DNA of 64,000 nucleotides from Candidatus Woesearchaeota archaeon (lineage in GTDB: Archaea; Nanobdellota; Nanobdellia; Pacearchaeales; GW2011-AR1). Under the pieces are notes generated by a model, which was not told the origin of the DNA, made no database searches, and saw only the letters and a list, made by a program, of their open reading frames with translations. Each line of letters begins with the position of its first letter. Positions within the stretch are counted from its first letter, which is position 1. Where the stretch lies: positions 303,309 through 367,308 of the forward strand of contig CAZEYD010000001.1 of assembly GCA_964516745.1 (NCBI GenBank), read 5' to 3'. Below, in pieces: positions 28,937 through 64,000 of the stretch. The translations under genes and the position numbers were made by a program.

Positions 28937-29009
28937 AGTCCCGTAGTCTAGTGGTCAAGGATGTCGGACTCTGAATCCGGCGACCCAGGTTCGAATCCTG
29001 GCGGGGCTA
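28937..29009 (+). tRNA. tRNA-Gln (anticodon CUG)
   Basis: Hand-folded cloverleaf. Acceptor agtcccg/cggggct, anticodon stem tcgga/tccgg with loop ctCTGaa, T arm ccagg-ttcgaat-cctgg, discriminator a. Confidence 0.85.
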
Positions 29010-29145
29010 TAATATTTTTAGAAATAAAGTCACCATTACAATGCCATGATGAGAACCTGAGGTTCGACGAACAGTTTTACTCGAATTTTATATTAATATA
29101 TACTAATAAAATTTCAGAGTGAAATGTGAGCACTGGCGGGGCTAT
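28998..29145 (+). repeat. 13-nt direct repeat of the tRNA-Gln 3' end (ctggcggggctat at 28998-29010 and 29133-29145) bracketing a ~120-nt insert
   Basis: The two copies match exactly. The second copy is followed by an 8-T run. The inner part, 29053-29132, is homologous to 62546-62631. Confidence 0.8.
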
Positions 29146-29188
29146 TTTTTTTCAAAACCTTTATAACTTTCTCTAACCACCTATTTTT

Positions 29189-29710
29189 ATGAAAATTCAA
29201 GCAATATTACTAGGGAAAAAGATTAGTTCAAACTCAAAAGAGGCCTTTGATTTATTATCAAACCAAAGATTTGGAGAAAAGGAAGGAGACAAGGTCTATT
29301 ATATGTTAGAAGAGGCATATTATCTTTTAGAAAAAAGAAAAATAACAATAAAATCATCTTCATATAAAGAACTTAATAAATTAGAGGTGAGCAAAAAATT
29401 CAGTGTGATAGATAGAAATTTTCTAGTTAACTATATGGCATATAAAGATTTGAAGGAAAAAGGATATTTAATAAAAACAGGACTGAAGTTTGGAGGAACA
29501 TTTAGAGTATATAATAAAGAAGCAAGAATCGGACAATCTCATTCAAAATGGATATGTTTTGCAATAGACTCAAAAGAAAAAAATGCATGGCAAGATTTTG
29601 CAGCAAAAAACAGAGTCGCCCATTCAACAAAAAAAACACTATTAATAGCTGTTGTAGATGCAGAGAATGACGTAACATACTATGAGTCTTCTTGGAAGAA
29701 AATTGTTTAA
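29189..29710 (+). CDS. endA: tRNA-splicing endonuclease (short homotetramer-type EndA)
   Basis: GLKFGGTFRVY, SHSKWICFAI and AHSTKKTLLIAVVD match the Y/H/K catalytic context of EndA. The size of 173 aa fits. Confidence 0.8.
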   Translation: MKIQAILLGKKISSNSKEAFDLLSNQRFGEKEGDKVYYMLEEAYYLLEKRKITIKSSSYKELNKLEVSKKFSVIDRNFLVNYMAYKDLKEKGYLIKTGLKFGGTFRVYNKEARIGQSHSKWICFAIDSKEKNAWQDFAAKNRVAHSTKKTLLIAVVDAENDVTYYESSWKKIV

Positions 29711-59870: not shown

Positions 59871-60659
59871 TTATTCAACATTCATGATTTCCAATTCGGA
59901 ATTCAGGATTTTTAATTCTTCACTATGTAATTTAGCAGTAATATGGATATCTCCAAAATGGATAGGCTGCCAAAGATACAGTTTCTGTTGATTTGCAAGA
60001 TGCAATATTGGCAAAAACGATGCAATCTTTTCTTCCTTATCTTCAGCAAGATGATGGAATTTTATAGAATCGTTTTCAGGCTTAGAAAGATGATCACTAA
60101 TAATATCATAAATCTTTTTTACCCTGACCTTCAAAGGAATATGCTGTTGTGGCAATACCATTAACGCTGATTTCTCGGCCTGTCGAGTTTTAATATGTTT
60201 TTTAATTCTTCGATTTTCAGTATTTATAGCATGGTTCAATGCCTTCATTAATTCATCAATAGTTACCTTTTTATGACGAGCAAGTGGGGTTCTCAGAACA
60301 AGTATTGGTAAGTCATCTTCATCAATATTAAAATCCTCCAAGCCTAAAACTGTTTGAGTTTCTTTCTTACCATATAACGCATCATTCAATTCTTGAATAT
60401 ATTGATTAGCTAATATATCAGATTTTAATCTCAGAAACAGAGAACAAGCTAGAAGAACTTTGGAAGAAATAAAAAAATCAGCTTCCTCTAACATTTGTAT
60501 AACCTCCAGATATCTATCGGCAAGAATACCAATATCAATATCCCATGGATTAAGCTGATCAGTTTTAATCAAATCATATATTATAGATTGCCAACTCAGC
60601 TCATTACTTGTAATTAAATCAAAGAATTGATTCTGATTTATTCTATCACCTCTTTCCAT
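59871..60659 (-). CDS. scpA: Segregation and condensation protein A (kleisin ScpA)
   Basis: FDLITSNELSWQSIIYDLI...NPWDIDIGILADRYLEVI. The ATG at 60659 lies 12 nt after AGGAGGA. The ORF-track TTG start is at 60671. Confidence 0.75.
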   Translation of the reverse strand: MERGDRINQNQFFDLITSNELSWQSIIYDLIKTDQLNPWDIDIGILADRYLEVIQMLEEADFFISSKVLLACSLFLRLKSDILANQYIQELNDALYGKKETQTVLGLEDFNIDEDDLPILVLRTPLARHKKVTIDELMKALNHAINTENRRIKKHIKTRQAEKSALMVLPQQHIPLKVRVKKIYDIISDHLSKPENDSIKFHHLAEDKEEKIASFLPILHLANQQKLYLWQPIHFGDIHITAKLHSEELKILNSELEIMNVE

Positions 60660-60778
60660 AGTATGTTTCAATCCTCCTGATTAATAAATTTACCCACAGG
60701 GTGATGTCACTAAGCGATTACAACAGAACCAAAAACTTTATAAAGGTGGATAATATAATTATATTATCACCTCTTTTT

Positions 60779-60834
60779 CCCCAGGAGAGCGCGGTAAGGC
60801 ATCTTTTTAGCCGCTTTATCGCATCTCCCAGGGT
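60779..60834 (-). ncRNA. Candidate small structured RNA (GC-rich hairpin with internal loop), function unknown
   Basis: This is a local GC island in an AT-rich spacer. On the minus strand ccctgggaga...tctcctgggg pairs over 10 bp, including 2 G-U pairs that would be A-C mismatches on the plus strand. Inner stems gcg/cgc and gcgg/ccgc also pair. An AT hairpin at 60744-60772 plus a T-run follows on the minus strand. Confidence 0.25.
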
Positions 60835-60934
60835 ATATTAAAGTATTAAAATTAATATTTCTAGTAAAACAATGAGAAGTATAATTTCTTAAACATATAT
60901 AGTCATTAAATAAAAATATCAATAATCAGTAGGT

Positions 60935-61159
60935 CTATTCTAACTTAGCTTCAACTTCTTTCTTATCAAATTCTGTAAAATGACATCTTCCACAATAGGC
61001 TCTTCCTTGACCAATAGATAAAAAGATTCCAGGGCCACATCTAGGACAACTTCTAGCTCTTATTAACTTCTCACCATCAATTTTATACTTTGTATATTTC
61101 TTTGAGGTTGGTTTGTTAACATGTTTTTTCTTACCTTTTATTTTTGACTTGATTGCCAT
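60935..61159 (-). CDS. rps27ae: Ribosomal protein eS31 (S27ae)
   Basis: CPRCGPG...CGRCHF Zn-ribbon with a basic N-terminus. Confidence 0.85.
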   Translation of the reverse strand: MAIKSKIKGKKKHVNKPTSKKYTKYKIDGEKLIRARSCPRCGPGIFLSIGQGRAYCGRCHFTEFDKKEVEAKLE

Positions 61160-61548
61160 TATTCTGTTGCCTCCTCAATATTTTCCTTAACCTTTTCTTC
61201 TTTTGCTGCTGCTGCAGCTTCAGTAGCAGCTTTCTCTTCTGCTTCCTTCTTTTTCTTTTCTTCTGCCTCTCTTTCCAATCTATCTTTTTCCATTTTTATT
61301 CTAACTTTTTTAGGAATAGCCATATATTTACTCTTAGCTTCAAGAGAATTATAGACAACTAGATCAACAATAAAAGATTGCTTTCCAAAGTTAGTATGAA
61401 TTTTTCTAATAACAGTTAATTCAGCATTTTTACCTAATTCTGCAATAACCTCGTACTTCGTAGGAGAAGCTCTATTCACAATTTTTAACATAAATTCTTC
61501 CCTCTCCAAAAAGGGATTGCTATTTTGACTAATAATTTTTGATTCCAT
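61159..61548 (-). CDS. rps24e: Ribosomal protein eS24 with K/E/A-rich C-terminal extension
   Basis: NPFLEREEFMLKI...IHTNFGKQSFIV..., followed by an EAEEKKKKEAEEKAATEAAAAAKEEK tail. Confidence 0.85.
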   Translation of the reverse strand: MESKIISQNSNPFLEREEFMLKIVNRASPTKYEVIAELGKNAELTVIRKIHTNFGKQSFIVDLVVYNSLEAKSKYMAIPKKVRIKMEKDRLEREAEEKKKKEAEEKAATEAAAAAKEEKVKENIEEATE

Positions 61549-61549
61549 T

Positions 61550-61747
61550 TTATTTTATTTTAATTGCAAATTCTCCTTCTTTATGAATATCTAATCTATT
61601 TGCAATCTCTGATTTATCAGCATTAAATACTTGTAATTTTCCCTTAAAAGTATTCGTAGACGGTGTCTCATCACATTTTGGACAACGATCTCCAATATAT
61701 ACAGCTTTACAATTCAAACATGCTTTTTCTTTTATTTTTCCTGCCAT
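61550..61747 (-). CDS. spt4: Transcription elongation factor Spt4 / RpoE''
   Basis: CLNCKAVYIGDRCPKCDE Zn-ribbon, 65 aa, downstream of rpoE'. Confidence 0.75.
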   Translation of the reverse strand: MAGKIKEKACLNCKAVYIGDRCPKCDETPSTNTFKGKLQVFNADKSEIANRLDIHKEGEFAIKIK

Positions 61748-61748
61748 T

Positions 61749-62342
61749 TTATTTTTTCTTTACAGTCTTTTTTTCAATCTTCAAGACCTTGACTGTTTGT
61801 TGTTTAGATTTCTCCTTTTCTAATTGAACCCATTCTAATTTTCCTAAGCCAGGTTGTCTCATAGTAAGACCAATTTTTGGCTCATCCCCTCTATATGAAA
61901 TTGCAACAATTCTAGCAATACAATCATCTCCCTTAACCAAAGATCTTTTACTTTCTTTACCAGAAAGAGCTCCAGTATCAGAAAAGGATACAAAATCATC
62001 CATAGTTTGTGAAATATGAATCATTCCTTTAATAATTCCTAAATTAATAAAAGCACCGAAATTTGTAATCTCTTCAATCGTTCCATACACAACCTCTTGT
62101 AATTCAGGTCTAAACACAATAACTTTAAATGTAGATTCGTAATAAGCAGAACCATCACCAGGTATAATAATACCTTCTTGAACCTCTAAAACTTCTAAAA
62201 CAGAAACAATAACTCCCATATCTTTATCTTGAAATCCAATATAAGATTCTTCAAGTTGTTTTTTAACAGCTTCATCAGTATCAGCGCTAAACTTGTCAGG
62301 ACTTACTCTTATATGATCCGTTACTAATAATTCATAGAACAT
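61749..62342 (-). CDS. rpoE: RNA polymerase subunit Rpo7/RpoE'
   Basis: The N-terminal Rpo7 fold begins MFYELLVTDHIRVSP. S1 domain GTIEEITNFGAFINLG...GMIHISQ. Confidence 0.85.
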   Translation of the reverse strand: MFYELLVTDHIRVSPDKFSADTDEAVKKQLEESYIGFQDKDMGVIVSVLEVLEVQEGIIIPGDGSAYYESTFKVIVFRPELQEVVYGTIEEITNFGAFINLGIIKGMIHISQTMDDFVSFSDTGALSGKESKRSLVKGDDCIARIVAISYRGDEPKIGLTMRQPGLGKLEWVQLEKEKSKQQTVKVLKIEKKTVKKK

Positions 62343-62466
62343 AAAATATTGGAGAAAATTCGATTTATAAATCTTTTGGAGTTACAGTAATATCAAAACA
62401 AAACAGAATAATAAGTAAAAGAGATAAACATTAAATTTTTAAATTGTTTTTAATCTAATCTTGTAT

Positions 62467-62540
62467 GGCTCTGTAGCTCAGCTGGTTAGAGCGCCGCTCT
62501 CATGAGGCGGAGGTCGAGGGTTCGTATCCCTCCAGAGCCA
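62467..62540 (+). tRNA. tRNA with CAU anticodon (elongator Met or Ile2)
   Basis: Hand-folded. Acceptor ggctctg/cagagcc, D arm gctc-agctggtta-gagc, anticodon stem ccgct/ggcgg with loop ctCATga, T arm gaggg-ttcgtat-ccctc, discriminator a. Confidence 0.85.
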
Positions 62541-62653
62541 TTAACGAACCCGAGACAGTCGAGGGCGAACAATTCACTCCGAATGAAAATATTTTCTATA
62601 ATCTTTTTCAATGAGGTGTAAATTGTAAGCAGTATCCCTCCAGAGCCATTAAC
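62524..62653 (+). repeat. 22-nt direct repeat of the tRNA(CAU) 3' end (gtatccctccagagccattaac at 62524-62545 and 62632-62653) bracketing an 86-nt insert
   Basis: The two copies match exactly. The insert 62546-62631 is homologous to 29053-29132. Confidence 0.8.
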
Positions 62654-62729
62654 CCTTAACCGTAGCGCGAAGGTTGAAGACTTTAACCCATTTCTTATGT
62701 AATGTCAGAGAAATGTCTAAGCAACCAAA

Positions 62730-63386
62730 TTAATTATTTCCAATATTACGAAATGTTTTATGAGGGTCTTGCGAAATCAAAATCCCGTCAGGTGCCAATA
62801 GTCTTTTCTCTATTCCAGAAACATAAAATCCATAAGAACTCATATTTTGATATAGATCAGCTCCCATTATATCAACGACTACATCAAATTTTCCAACTAA
62901 TTCAGGATTATTTTGAATCGCATCAATAAACGGAAAATTTATTAAATTAACTTTTTCGGGATCTAAATATACGTCACATCTTCTGACTAAAGATTCCAAT
63001 TCTGGTGTTATTTTAGGATCAATACGTAAATTAATGGCATATTGTAACATGTTTTTCATCTTTTTATAATCTGAAAGCTCTATTACTGTCGGCCTTTCAT
63101 CAAATTCAATTTTTTCTAAAATATAAGGAATCCATTCAGCCAAACCAGAACCAACTTCTAAACATTTATCAGTGGCCTTTATTTTTATTTCACTCAATTC
63201 AGAAGAATAAGTATCAACTTCTCTATGTGTTACTGGTATCCCACATGGAAGATTAAACCAAATATCGTAAACATTCTCTCTCGTGATGTTATCAGGAATA
63301 TTAATCGATAACTTATAACCCGTTTTATCGAAAATTAATAAATTTCCTTCATCGGCATCAATATCTGTTATATATTCTTCAATCAT
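62730..63386 (-). CDS. Possible SAM-dependent methyltransferase-like protein
   Basis: CLEVGSGLAEW resembles motif I, and FDVVVDIMG is a later acidic-loop-like motif. The assignment is weak. Confidence 0.45.
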   Translation of the reverse strand: MIEEYITDIDADEGNLLIFDKTGYKLSINIPDNITRENVYDIWFNLPCGIPVTHREVDTYSSELSEIKIKATDKCLEVGSGLAEWIPYILEKIEFDERPTVIELSDYKKMKNMLQYAINLRIDPKITPELESLVRRCDVYLDPEKVNLINFPFIDAIQNNPELVGKFDVVVDIMGADLYQNMSSYGFYVSGIEKRLLAPDGILISQDPHKTFRNIGNN

Positions 63387-63504
63387 ATTAAATTAATATG
63401 TAAAGGGTATTTAAATCTTAATATCCGTAACTACTAGTAAGTTAGTCAAATGATTCCTTTTTTAAATATTTAATGCAAAACCATTTTCTCAACCAACTCC
63501 CCTC

Positions 63505-64000
63505 TCACTTAAACAACCTTTTCCACAATCTCACAAGAAACCCATCACCAAAATCATTTACAACTCTCCTGTCTTCACACATCATACAAGAGCCACCACA
63601 ATCAACATCAATTTCGTCACCATCTAAAATACCATTGAAACAATAATTGCAATAAGGACTAGTAGCAATATTAGACAAATCAATATTAACATAAGGAGCT
63701 TGTTCATTTCCCTGTTTTAAGTTAGCAATAAGGGAGTCATCTAAGTTATTATAGAGACCAATATAGTCTTCACCACACTTAGTAAATGGTTGGATATAAA
63801 CGTCAACTGCAGTCGAACATTCCTGAGTTTCTCTTACATCGTTAGTGCATTTATTTGAATCTTTACATATTCTCGACTGAACACCATCATATAGATACTC
63901 ATTCTCGGACAATGTTAAAAAGTTATAATCAGGAACACAAAGATTCCAATCTTCACAAACAATATTAGGAACACACTCTTTTCGACATTCAACTTTTGAA
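63505..64000 (-). CDS. Cys-rich secreted-type protein, partial (N-terminus lies outside the window)
   Basis: The reading frame stays open upstream of the ORF-track TTG at 63912, all the way to the window edge (...SKVECRKECVPNIVCEDWNLCVPDYNFLTLSENEY...). Many Cys residues. Confidence 0.5.
   Translation of the reverse strand, partial: SKVECRKECVPNIVCEDWNLCVPDYNFLTLSENEYLYDGVQSRICKDSNKCTNDVRETQECSTAVDVYIQPFTKCGEDYIGLYNNLDDSLIANLKQGNEQAPYVNIDLSNIATSPYCNYCFNGILDGDEIDVDCGGSCMMCEDRRVVNDFGDGFLVRLWKRLFK

Follow-up and report, generated by a model that had tools for sequence, protein, structure and literature searches.

Directly behind an intact tRNA-Met(CAU) gene of a woesearchaeotal genome lies a second, interrupted copy of the gene's own 3' end, which raises the question of whether this downstream unit is an intron-bearing or split tRNA, the scar of an integrative element, a functional RNA or a mobile sequence. 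We analysed the locus within a window of 64,000 nucleotides, which is the whole stretch of DNA under study. The genome holding the window (G000) is represented by a 15-contig draft of 1.0 Mb with 31% G + C content and some N runs, and many of its tRNAs carry introns. The locus comprises the following features.

62467–62540, forward strand: intact tRNA-Met(CAU) (Rfam RF00005, 70.1 bits, E 1.9e-14; ARAGORN, Met, CAU)
62524–62545, forward strand: first copy of a 22-nt direct repeat, 100% identical (Z1+C)
62544 or 62546 to 62556, forward strand: X, an inverted copy of 62513–62525 (inverted repeat, 13 nt, 85% complementary)
62557, forward strand: 1-nt spacer at the axis of the X/Y2 palindrome
62558–62565, forward strand: Y2, gtcgaggg, an 8-nt direct copy matching tRNA positions 46–53 (62513–62520)
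62566–62631, forward strand: core of type A1, 66 nt, an imperfect hairpin (78.1 bits with model R1)
62632–62653, forward strand: second copy of the 22-nt repeat (Z2+C), a direct repeat of 62524–62545

The intact tRNA-Met(CAU), on which the Rfam model and ARAGORN agree, is the functional copy and most likely an elongator tRNA. A previous sequence-only reading of this DNA had described a complete tRNA, an exact 22-nt copy of its end further downstream and, between the two, a segment gtcgaggg identical to part of the same tRNA, and each of these observations was reproduced. The repeat GTATCCCTCCAGAGCCATTAAC was present exactly twice in a repeat search, at 62524–62545 and 62632–62653, and consists of 17 nt of tRNA (including the discriminator A62540) and 5 nt of trailer. 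Its first copy spans T-loop positions 57–60, the 3' strand of the T-stem, the 3' strand of the acceptor, the discriminator and the five trailer nucleotides ttaac. The template of Y2 is the eight bases directly 5' of the insertion point, before TTC. Z2 begins at T-loop position 57 and TTC (54–56) is absent between Y2 and Z2, so that TTC is the sole part of the T-arm absent from the interrupted downstream copy. This anatomy supports the earlier proposal of a T-arm plus acceptor 3' copy interrupted in the T-loop, and we read 62632–62653 as a non-functional tRNA 3' fragment.

X had been overlooked in the sequence-only reading. Its source comprises the variable loop, the 5' strand of the T-stem and TTCGT (62513–62525), and its two central mismatches create a tandem G.A/A.G (CGAG opposite CGAG). 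The whole module behind tRNA-Met occupies 62541–62653, directly 3' of the tRNA end at 62540 and on the same strand. The 86 nt that separate the two 22-nt repeats (62546–62631) contain no ORF, no recombinase gene and no cargo.

A sister module is located behind tRNA-Gln(CUG) in the same window, where it adjoins the endA gene.

28937–29145, forward strand: tRNA-Gln(CUG), ending at 29009, with its module
29051–29060, forward strand: X
29061–29067, forward strand: Y2 (ggttcga)
29068–29132, forward strand: core of type A2
29133–29145, forward strand: Z2, followed by a T run

The homology previously proposed between the 86-nt insert and that of tRNA-Gln was confirmed, as one nhmmer profile and covariance model R1 match both. 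The common architecture of the two loci also stood, but two instances were too few to describe it, the design being genome-wide and genus-wide. In the family, the part order is intact tRNA with a few trailer bases, X, spacer, Y2, core and Z2, together about 110 bases in the module; the core is an imperfect hairpin of about 78 nt (66 nt at tRNA-Met), and Z2 copies the tRNA from T-loop position 57 onwards, overrunning the gene end by a few bases. With a cut-off above the 99th percentile of non-cognate tRNA/flank pairs, a downstream copy of the tRNA's own 3' end was found behind 12 of the 36 tRNAs of G000, where 0.36 would be expected, a number far in excess of chance.

A profile of the type-A core found 10 copies in G000, all adjacent to tRNAs, on the tRNA strand and 25–82 nt downstream. 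These cores (A1 and A2) lie behind Asn, Thr(GGU), Thr(UGU), Ile, Met, Gln(CUG), Glu(CUC), Arg(UCG), Leu(UAA) and Ser(AGA). Three other core families (B, C and D) are bordered by the same flanks, behind Val(UAC)/Thr(CGU), Arg(UCU)/Ser(UGA) and Glu(UUC). The unit structure is repeated behind many different tRNAs. Runs of 5–6 T separate the tRNA from the module at Glu(CUC), Gln, Arg(UCG) and Leu(UAA). An upstream copy of the tRNA's own 5' end precedes nine of the 36 tRNAs, in mirror-image upstream modules with a small covarying hairpin. Outside the window, such upstream modules are located at C1:46679–46740, 194451–194510, 270660–270726 and 274010–274073, C2:19000–19049 and 143634–143700, and C4:7660–7737 and 126730–126795. 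They begin with a copy of tRNA bases 1 to ~16, followed by (R)AGUA, a 5-bp hairpin showing compensatory changes and UUCAYAAA; the tRNA start then recurs in inverted form before the real tRNA. A TATA-like box precedes the copy, not the gene. We also observed that the 104-nt intron of tRNA-Glu(CUC) (C3:98088–98266) contains a C-box-like GTGATGA and also AATTCACTTTTGAAT, which is close to the A1 core's S1 arm (CAATTCACTCCGAAT); a link between core and intron is possible, as is chance.

The fold of the core was obtained from the A1 cores alone, and the mixed A1 and A2 alignment yielded no consensus fold. In an alignment of seven A1 cores, the 12 proposed pairs were 96% paired and 11 of them had changed on both sides. 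Covariance model R1 collected 35 cores from 30 genomes, and in the resulting alignment 98% of 416 cells were paired, with both-sided changes in 12 of 13 pairs. On four of five measures the observed covariation exceeded that of all 500 shuffles, and on the fifth it was reached by a single shuffle; the signal was lost when partner columns were slid. Position 1 of the core, either C or U, covaries with base 78 (CG 24, UA 5, UG 3). The non-Watson–Crick cells of the R1 alignment comprise 21 G.T versus 6 A.C, which indicates that the hairpin is selected on the tRNA-sense strand, either as RNA or as single-stranded DNA.

The A1 core has a stem that starts from its first base, conserved C.A and U.U mismatches, two conserved tandem G.A/A.G boxes (CGAG opposite CGAG), an AT-rich tip and a 2-nt 3' tail. 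As a whole, it amounts to a single long, imperfect inverted repeat, in line with the MITE layout of terminal inverted repeats around a short interior. It also shows attC-like traits, namely an imperfect hairpin, conserved non-paired positions (C.A, U.U and G.A) and a strand bias, whereas the RYYYAAC and GTTRRRY boxes of integrons were not found in it.

The further genomic copies whose absence the sequence-only reading would have taken as a refutation are abundant, as the 12 tail copies in G000 and matches of the core type in 41 of the 49 genomes of the genus demonstrate. R1 matched about 310 copies in total, with a maximum of 23 per genome, and many of these are in tandem arrays of units ~100–110 nt apart. 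Among 150 sampled genomes of the order, matches beyond the genus were confined to two sister genera. In several relatives (L017, L058, L067 and L045), N runs lie exactly inside tRNA-linked repeat arrays, either because assemblies break at such repeats or because bases were withheld, and the copy number there is unreadable. Across 30 loci, 16 cores, not counting those at tRNA-His of L039 (75 nt) and tRNA-Met of L030, start 21–39 nt from the tRNA end on the same strand. The tRNAs with a core at this distance are Met, Lys, Arg, Thr, Trp, Phe, Gln and Gly; those with a core farther away are His, Ser and Asn.

The rules of the module were read from ~20 further modules. Y2 is 7–9 nt long in nearly all of them, the spacer is 0–2 nt, 3–4 target bases are lost, the duplicated tail varies from 13 to 40 nt, and the copied trailer from 0 to 16 nt. 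The insertion point is usually 53/57, with others at 58/62, 60/64, 61/62 and in the T-stem; in tRNA-Arg of G019, the insertion is in the anticodon loop and Z2 is 40 nt. X, seen in ~20 other modules, has a length of 10–15 nt and up to the whole T-arm, starts at the same fixed axis and crosses the insertion point. Because it contains the complement of TTCG(T) across this point, X was copied from an uninterrupted T-arm. Its mismatches gather opposite the G's of the T-stem, mostly as C to A, and this pattern looks selected, which a mere scar does not explain. Z2 is often decayed in other modules, and X is decayed in many copies.

Comparison among relatives revealed gain, loss and shifted insertion points at one and the same tRNA. 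The tRNA-Met locus has no module in many relatives, including the close G006 and G017. In G049, the A1 core is inserted at 61/62 instead of the 53/57 of G000; in G022, tRNA-Met carries a different core; and in G005, it is followed by a further type of unit, present twice in tandem. Behind one tRNA-His lie two modules at different insertion points, each with its own matching X and Y2. In G060, the closest relative, tRNA-Gln/endA is occupied by a decayed module and is not an empty site, and no empty site of this species was found in metagenome contigs.

Insertion also occurs outside tRNAs. In G046, an AlaX/AlaRS-domain gene carries the module architecture at its 3' end, at the T-loop-like GGAGTTCGAAGG; a duplication covers the final 27 nt of this gene, with a diverged distal copy. 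The G000 orthologue has GGTGTTAGAAGA at this place, with neither motif nor module. In the last nine codons of the AlaX-like gene (L049, G046:C2:3702–6768), the intact and the displaced copy differ in 6 of 27 bases, and four of the six differences are synonymous (CGA AGG versus AGA CGG, AAG versus AAA, TAA versus TAG), which hints that one tail copy came from another lineage and not from local duplication. One insertion is disruptive and has no duplicate: in G043, the sole copy of tRNA-Gly(CCC) is broken by a core in inverted orientation, placed between GGGTTC and TCCCGG. Neither an X/Y2 stub belonging to this core nor an intact copy that would restore the tRNA is present, and the acceptor has decayed; the locus also contains older tail copies and an older small module. 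TTCGAA is palindromic, which agrees with insertion in either direction. The surroundings of the tRNA genes vary as well. Both tRNA-Met near rpoE' (Rpo7; window 61749–62342 versus L003) and tRNA-Gln near endA (window 28937–29700 versus L053, L058 and L061) have opposite orientations among genus members, indicating that tRNA genes have been flipped locally, and often.

The tRNA-Met itself is unusual in a manner that is independent of the module. The sequence-only reading had noted U at position 58, and the register of the Rfam tRNA covariance model places U there (T-loop UUCGUAU). The anticodon loop is CUCAUGA, with G37. Genus orthologues have the T-loops UUCGUAU, CUCGUAU, UUCGUGU or GUCAGCA, never with A58 (L002–L019), and G37 stands beside CAU in all genus members seen and also in one further family, whereas the other ANN-reading tRNAs of G000 all have A37. 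Since relatives that lack the module also have G37 and a non-A58 base, the trait does not depend on the module; it may point to unusual modification or recognition.

The closest counterparts are the TLRs of Escherichia coli, comprising 22 units at ten loci, in each of which the last 18–19 bp are identical to the 3' end of the preceding tRNA or rRNA gene (PMC8144298). They include the 178-bp repeats of tyrT (RttR) and rrA/rrB/rrF (Egan & Landy 1978; Rudd 1999; summarised in PMC8144298), and their function is unknown apart from that of RrA/B/F (PMC8144298). Both TLRs and archaeal modules are units of ~100–180 nt directly behind a tRNA (or 5S in the TLRs), on the same strand and in tandem. In E. 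coli K-12, the tyrT/tyrV unit consists of an inverted T-arm copy tcggggaagggtgagaaccttcga, a 2-nt spacer ct, a 9-nt direct copy aaggttcga, a structured 66-nt core that opens with a CGAGC-GAAA-GCGAG hairpin, and a 19-nt tail copy, which is the archaeal part order of X, spacer, Y2, core and Z2. The rrnB unit contains the tyrT-type core, and a clear X is not visible in it. CGAG/CGAG tandem-G.A hairpin motifs are common to both groups. The archaeal core differs in being AT-rich and unrelated in sequence apart from the short CGAG motifs, and RtT RNA (Rfam RF00391) gave no match at E up to 1 in the window at 60000–64000. Archaeal modules further differ from TLRs in their shorter X (10–15 nt), in the mirror-image modules before tRNAs and in their higher number of copies per genome size.

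We propose that the module is probably a small hairpin insertion element without genes, and that its insertion is coupled to a short duplication by which the target gene stays intact. A hairpin core of ~78 nt would have entered the T-loop of the tRNA-Met gene at GGG|TTC|GTAT, accompanied by a short target duplication from the insertion point to a few bases past the gene end. Such a duplication would leave the intact tRNA upstream and the interrupted, dead copy of Y2, core and Z2 downstream, and in essential single-copy genes copies would persist only if the stretch from the insertion point to past the gene end were present twice. X next to the 8-nt Y2 may be the scar of a fold-back or hairpin-end intermediate, the axis always being 8 nt from the insertion point. 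In this scheme, the right-hand end of the break, 8 nt from the insertion point, would be closed into a hairpin, the capped hairpin would later be opened off-centre, 10–24 nt from the tip, to give X, and the left-hand end would be rebuilt by copying the intact sister chromosome. The element may move as folded single-stranded DNA. The rescue step, comprising X and the duplicate, is a putative reconstruction from anatomy, and movement of the element is likewise inferred.

Several variants of this scheme were considered and rejected. A MITE with separated ends or an autonomous parent would have S1 and S2 half-sites lying apart, and G000 contains no separate S1 or S2 half-sites; no copy with an enzyme gene between the hairpin arms was found either. 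Fold-back priming of a nascent strand does not yield X, as the trailer end is not complementary at the required place, and X is no copy of Y2 plus the core start, as it carries the complement of TTCG(T). Neither the counts of tyrosine recombinase genes nor those of small GIY-YIG genes were related to the core counts in the genus. The small GIY-YIG gene of G000 is YhbQ-like, encodes ~85 amino acids and is present as a single copy (L076, C2:126021–126239). As a candidate enzyme it was rejected, being single-copy in most genus genomes, including core-less ones, and not adjoining tRNAs or cores; G012 lacks it, yet has 12 cores.

Alternatively, the module could be a functional trailer RNA within the tRNA transcript, comparable to RttR and RrA/B/F of E. 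coli, freed by tRNA-end processing enzymes that recognise Z2, with X pairing to the tRNA's own T-arm to time or check folding; a mobile origin could coexist with this role. It would agree with the position on the same strand at a fixed distance behind the tRNA, with the sense-strand hairpin and its G.U pairs, conserved tandem G.A motifs and conserved non-canonical pairs, with minimum-energy folds that pair the acceptor 5' strand with Z2 and the 5' half of the T-arm with X (Met, Thr, Gln and Glu), and with the transcription and processing of E. coli TLRs (PMC8144298). We nevertheless consider it unlikely, given that T runs expected to stop archaeal transcription lie before the module in several cases, that Z2 and X are decayed in many copies, that close relatives have no module or have it elsewhere, and that tandem arrays, a protein-gene copy and a tRNA-breaking copy exist. 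A C/D-box or H/ACA guide RNA was rejected, as Y2 and Z2 are identical and not complementary to the tRNA, proper boxes are missing and the G.U pairs place the fold on the sense strand. Less probable still is that the repeats are attL/attR scars left by a tRNA-targeting tyrosine integrase around a minimal or emptied element. The true integrase element at tRNA-Gln of G012, 13.9 kb in size, has a plain 16-nt repeat and no X, Y2 or hairpin, whereas the ~100-bp modules have tRNA-specific X and Y2 for at least 12 tRNAs, which a preformed attP cannot produce; the insertion point also shifts inside one T-arm, and integrase counts do not track core counts. These points outweigh the identity block, which runs from the T-loop past the tRNA end like classical att sites, the six tyrosine recombinase genes of G000, two of them ~500 nt behind tRNAs, and an X-like stub (ataactccg) between an intron-bearing tRNA on contig C4 and an integrase gene. 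In the G012 element, at tRNA-Gln(CUG) (L091, C1:36000–54000), the integrase adjoins the tRNA and the 16-nt att repeat is ATCCTGGAGGGGCTAT. At C4:81193–81313 of G000, ARAGORN called a Ser(UGA), and the loop CUUAUAG makes this gene look like a tRNA-Ile(UAU) with a 44-nt intron; an integrase gene begins ~60 nt 3' of it.

The sequence-only reading had suggested scans with archaeal intron and split-gene models. On this view, the T-loop of the tRNA-Met gene would carry a non-canonical intron, or the gene would have a 3' exon that is split or alternative, with removal by the archaeal splicing endonuclease. Many tRNAs of the genome have introns, the break of the interrupted copy falls in the T-loop and the endA gene lies next to the tRNA-Gln module. 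This line was not sustained, and we regard the explanation as very improbable: the complete tRNA comes first and no second tRNA was called at the module; without TTC (54–56), the interrupted copy cannot yield a T-loop; no bulge-helix-bulge could be drawn at the junctions, either in the sequence or in the folds, the loop between T-stem and hairpin having 0 nt on one strand and ~6 on the other; and E. coli has the same design but no such splicing. A mis-joined repeat in the assembly, conceivable in a 15-contig draft with some N runs, has a negligible chance of being the cause, as the pattern, with locus-specific sequence each time, recurs in dozens of assemblies made independently and also in E. 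coli K-12, whose genome is finished.

A hairpin insertion element of this kind would have partial counterparts among known mobile DNA. Like the modules, tRNA-targeting integrative elements have a direct repeat of the tRNA 3' part starting from the T-loop and leave the tRNA gene intact; the modules differ in having neither integrase nor cargo between the repeats and in the additional X, Y2 and hairpin. REPIN/REP sequences, MITEs, Rickettsia palindromic elements, integron attC sites and the attP hairpin of CTX phage are similar as non-autonomous or folded hairpins. They share the gene-less imperfect palindrome, compensatory change, conserved mismatches, strand bias and an ability to sit in genes. 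The modules, in contrast, have a nearly strict tie to tRNA loops, an inverted stub of the target and a variable target duplication of 13–40 nt, not a short fixed one. MITE copies are scattered over many kinds of sites, whereas all 10 type-A copies of G000 adjoin tRNAs, and no RAYT, IntI or transposase partner of the module was found. Another mobile DNA with tRNA and other small RNA genes as its specific targets is the Dada group of eukaryotic DNA transposons; unlike the archaeal modules, they encode a transposase, produce short fixed duplications and use multicopy targets instead of gene rebuilding (PMC3706591).

Taken as one signature, the inverted stub, the 8-nt direct stub, the hairpin and the tail copy raise the tentative and rather doubtful possibility that the archaeal modules and the E. 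coli TLRs represent a single unrecognised class of mobile hairpin DNA in bacteria and archaea that inserts into tRNA loops. Members of such a class would probably insert as folded single-stranded DNA, pass through a hairpin-capped intermediate and have the gene end regenerated. TLRs have been known since 1978 with their origin and function still unexplained, and this reading, if true, would explain a structure that has lacked an explanation since then. The genus provides a rich natural data set for these processes, with hundreds of dated, polymorphic copies behind tRNAs of every kind as well as protein-gene and tRNA-breaking copies. The structural rules, namely the 8-nt stub, the inverted stub spanning the insertion point, the loss of 3–4 target bases and a hairpin with limits fixed to the base, favour an insertion process over a purpose-built RNA. 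If this insertion process is real, it would be a new way for selfish DNA to reside in essential single-copy genes without death of the host, and also a source of tRNA-gene rearrangement such as the orientation flips seen in the genus.
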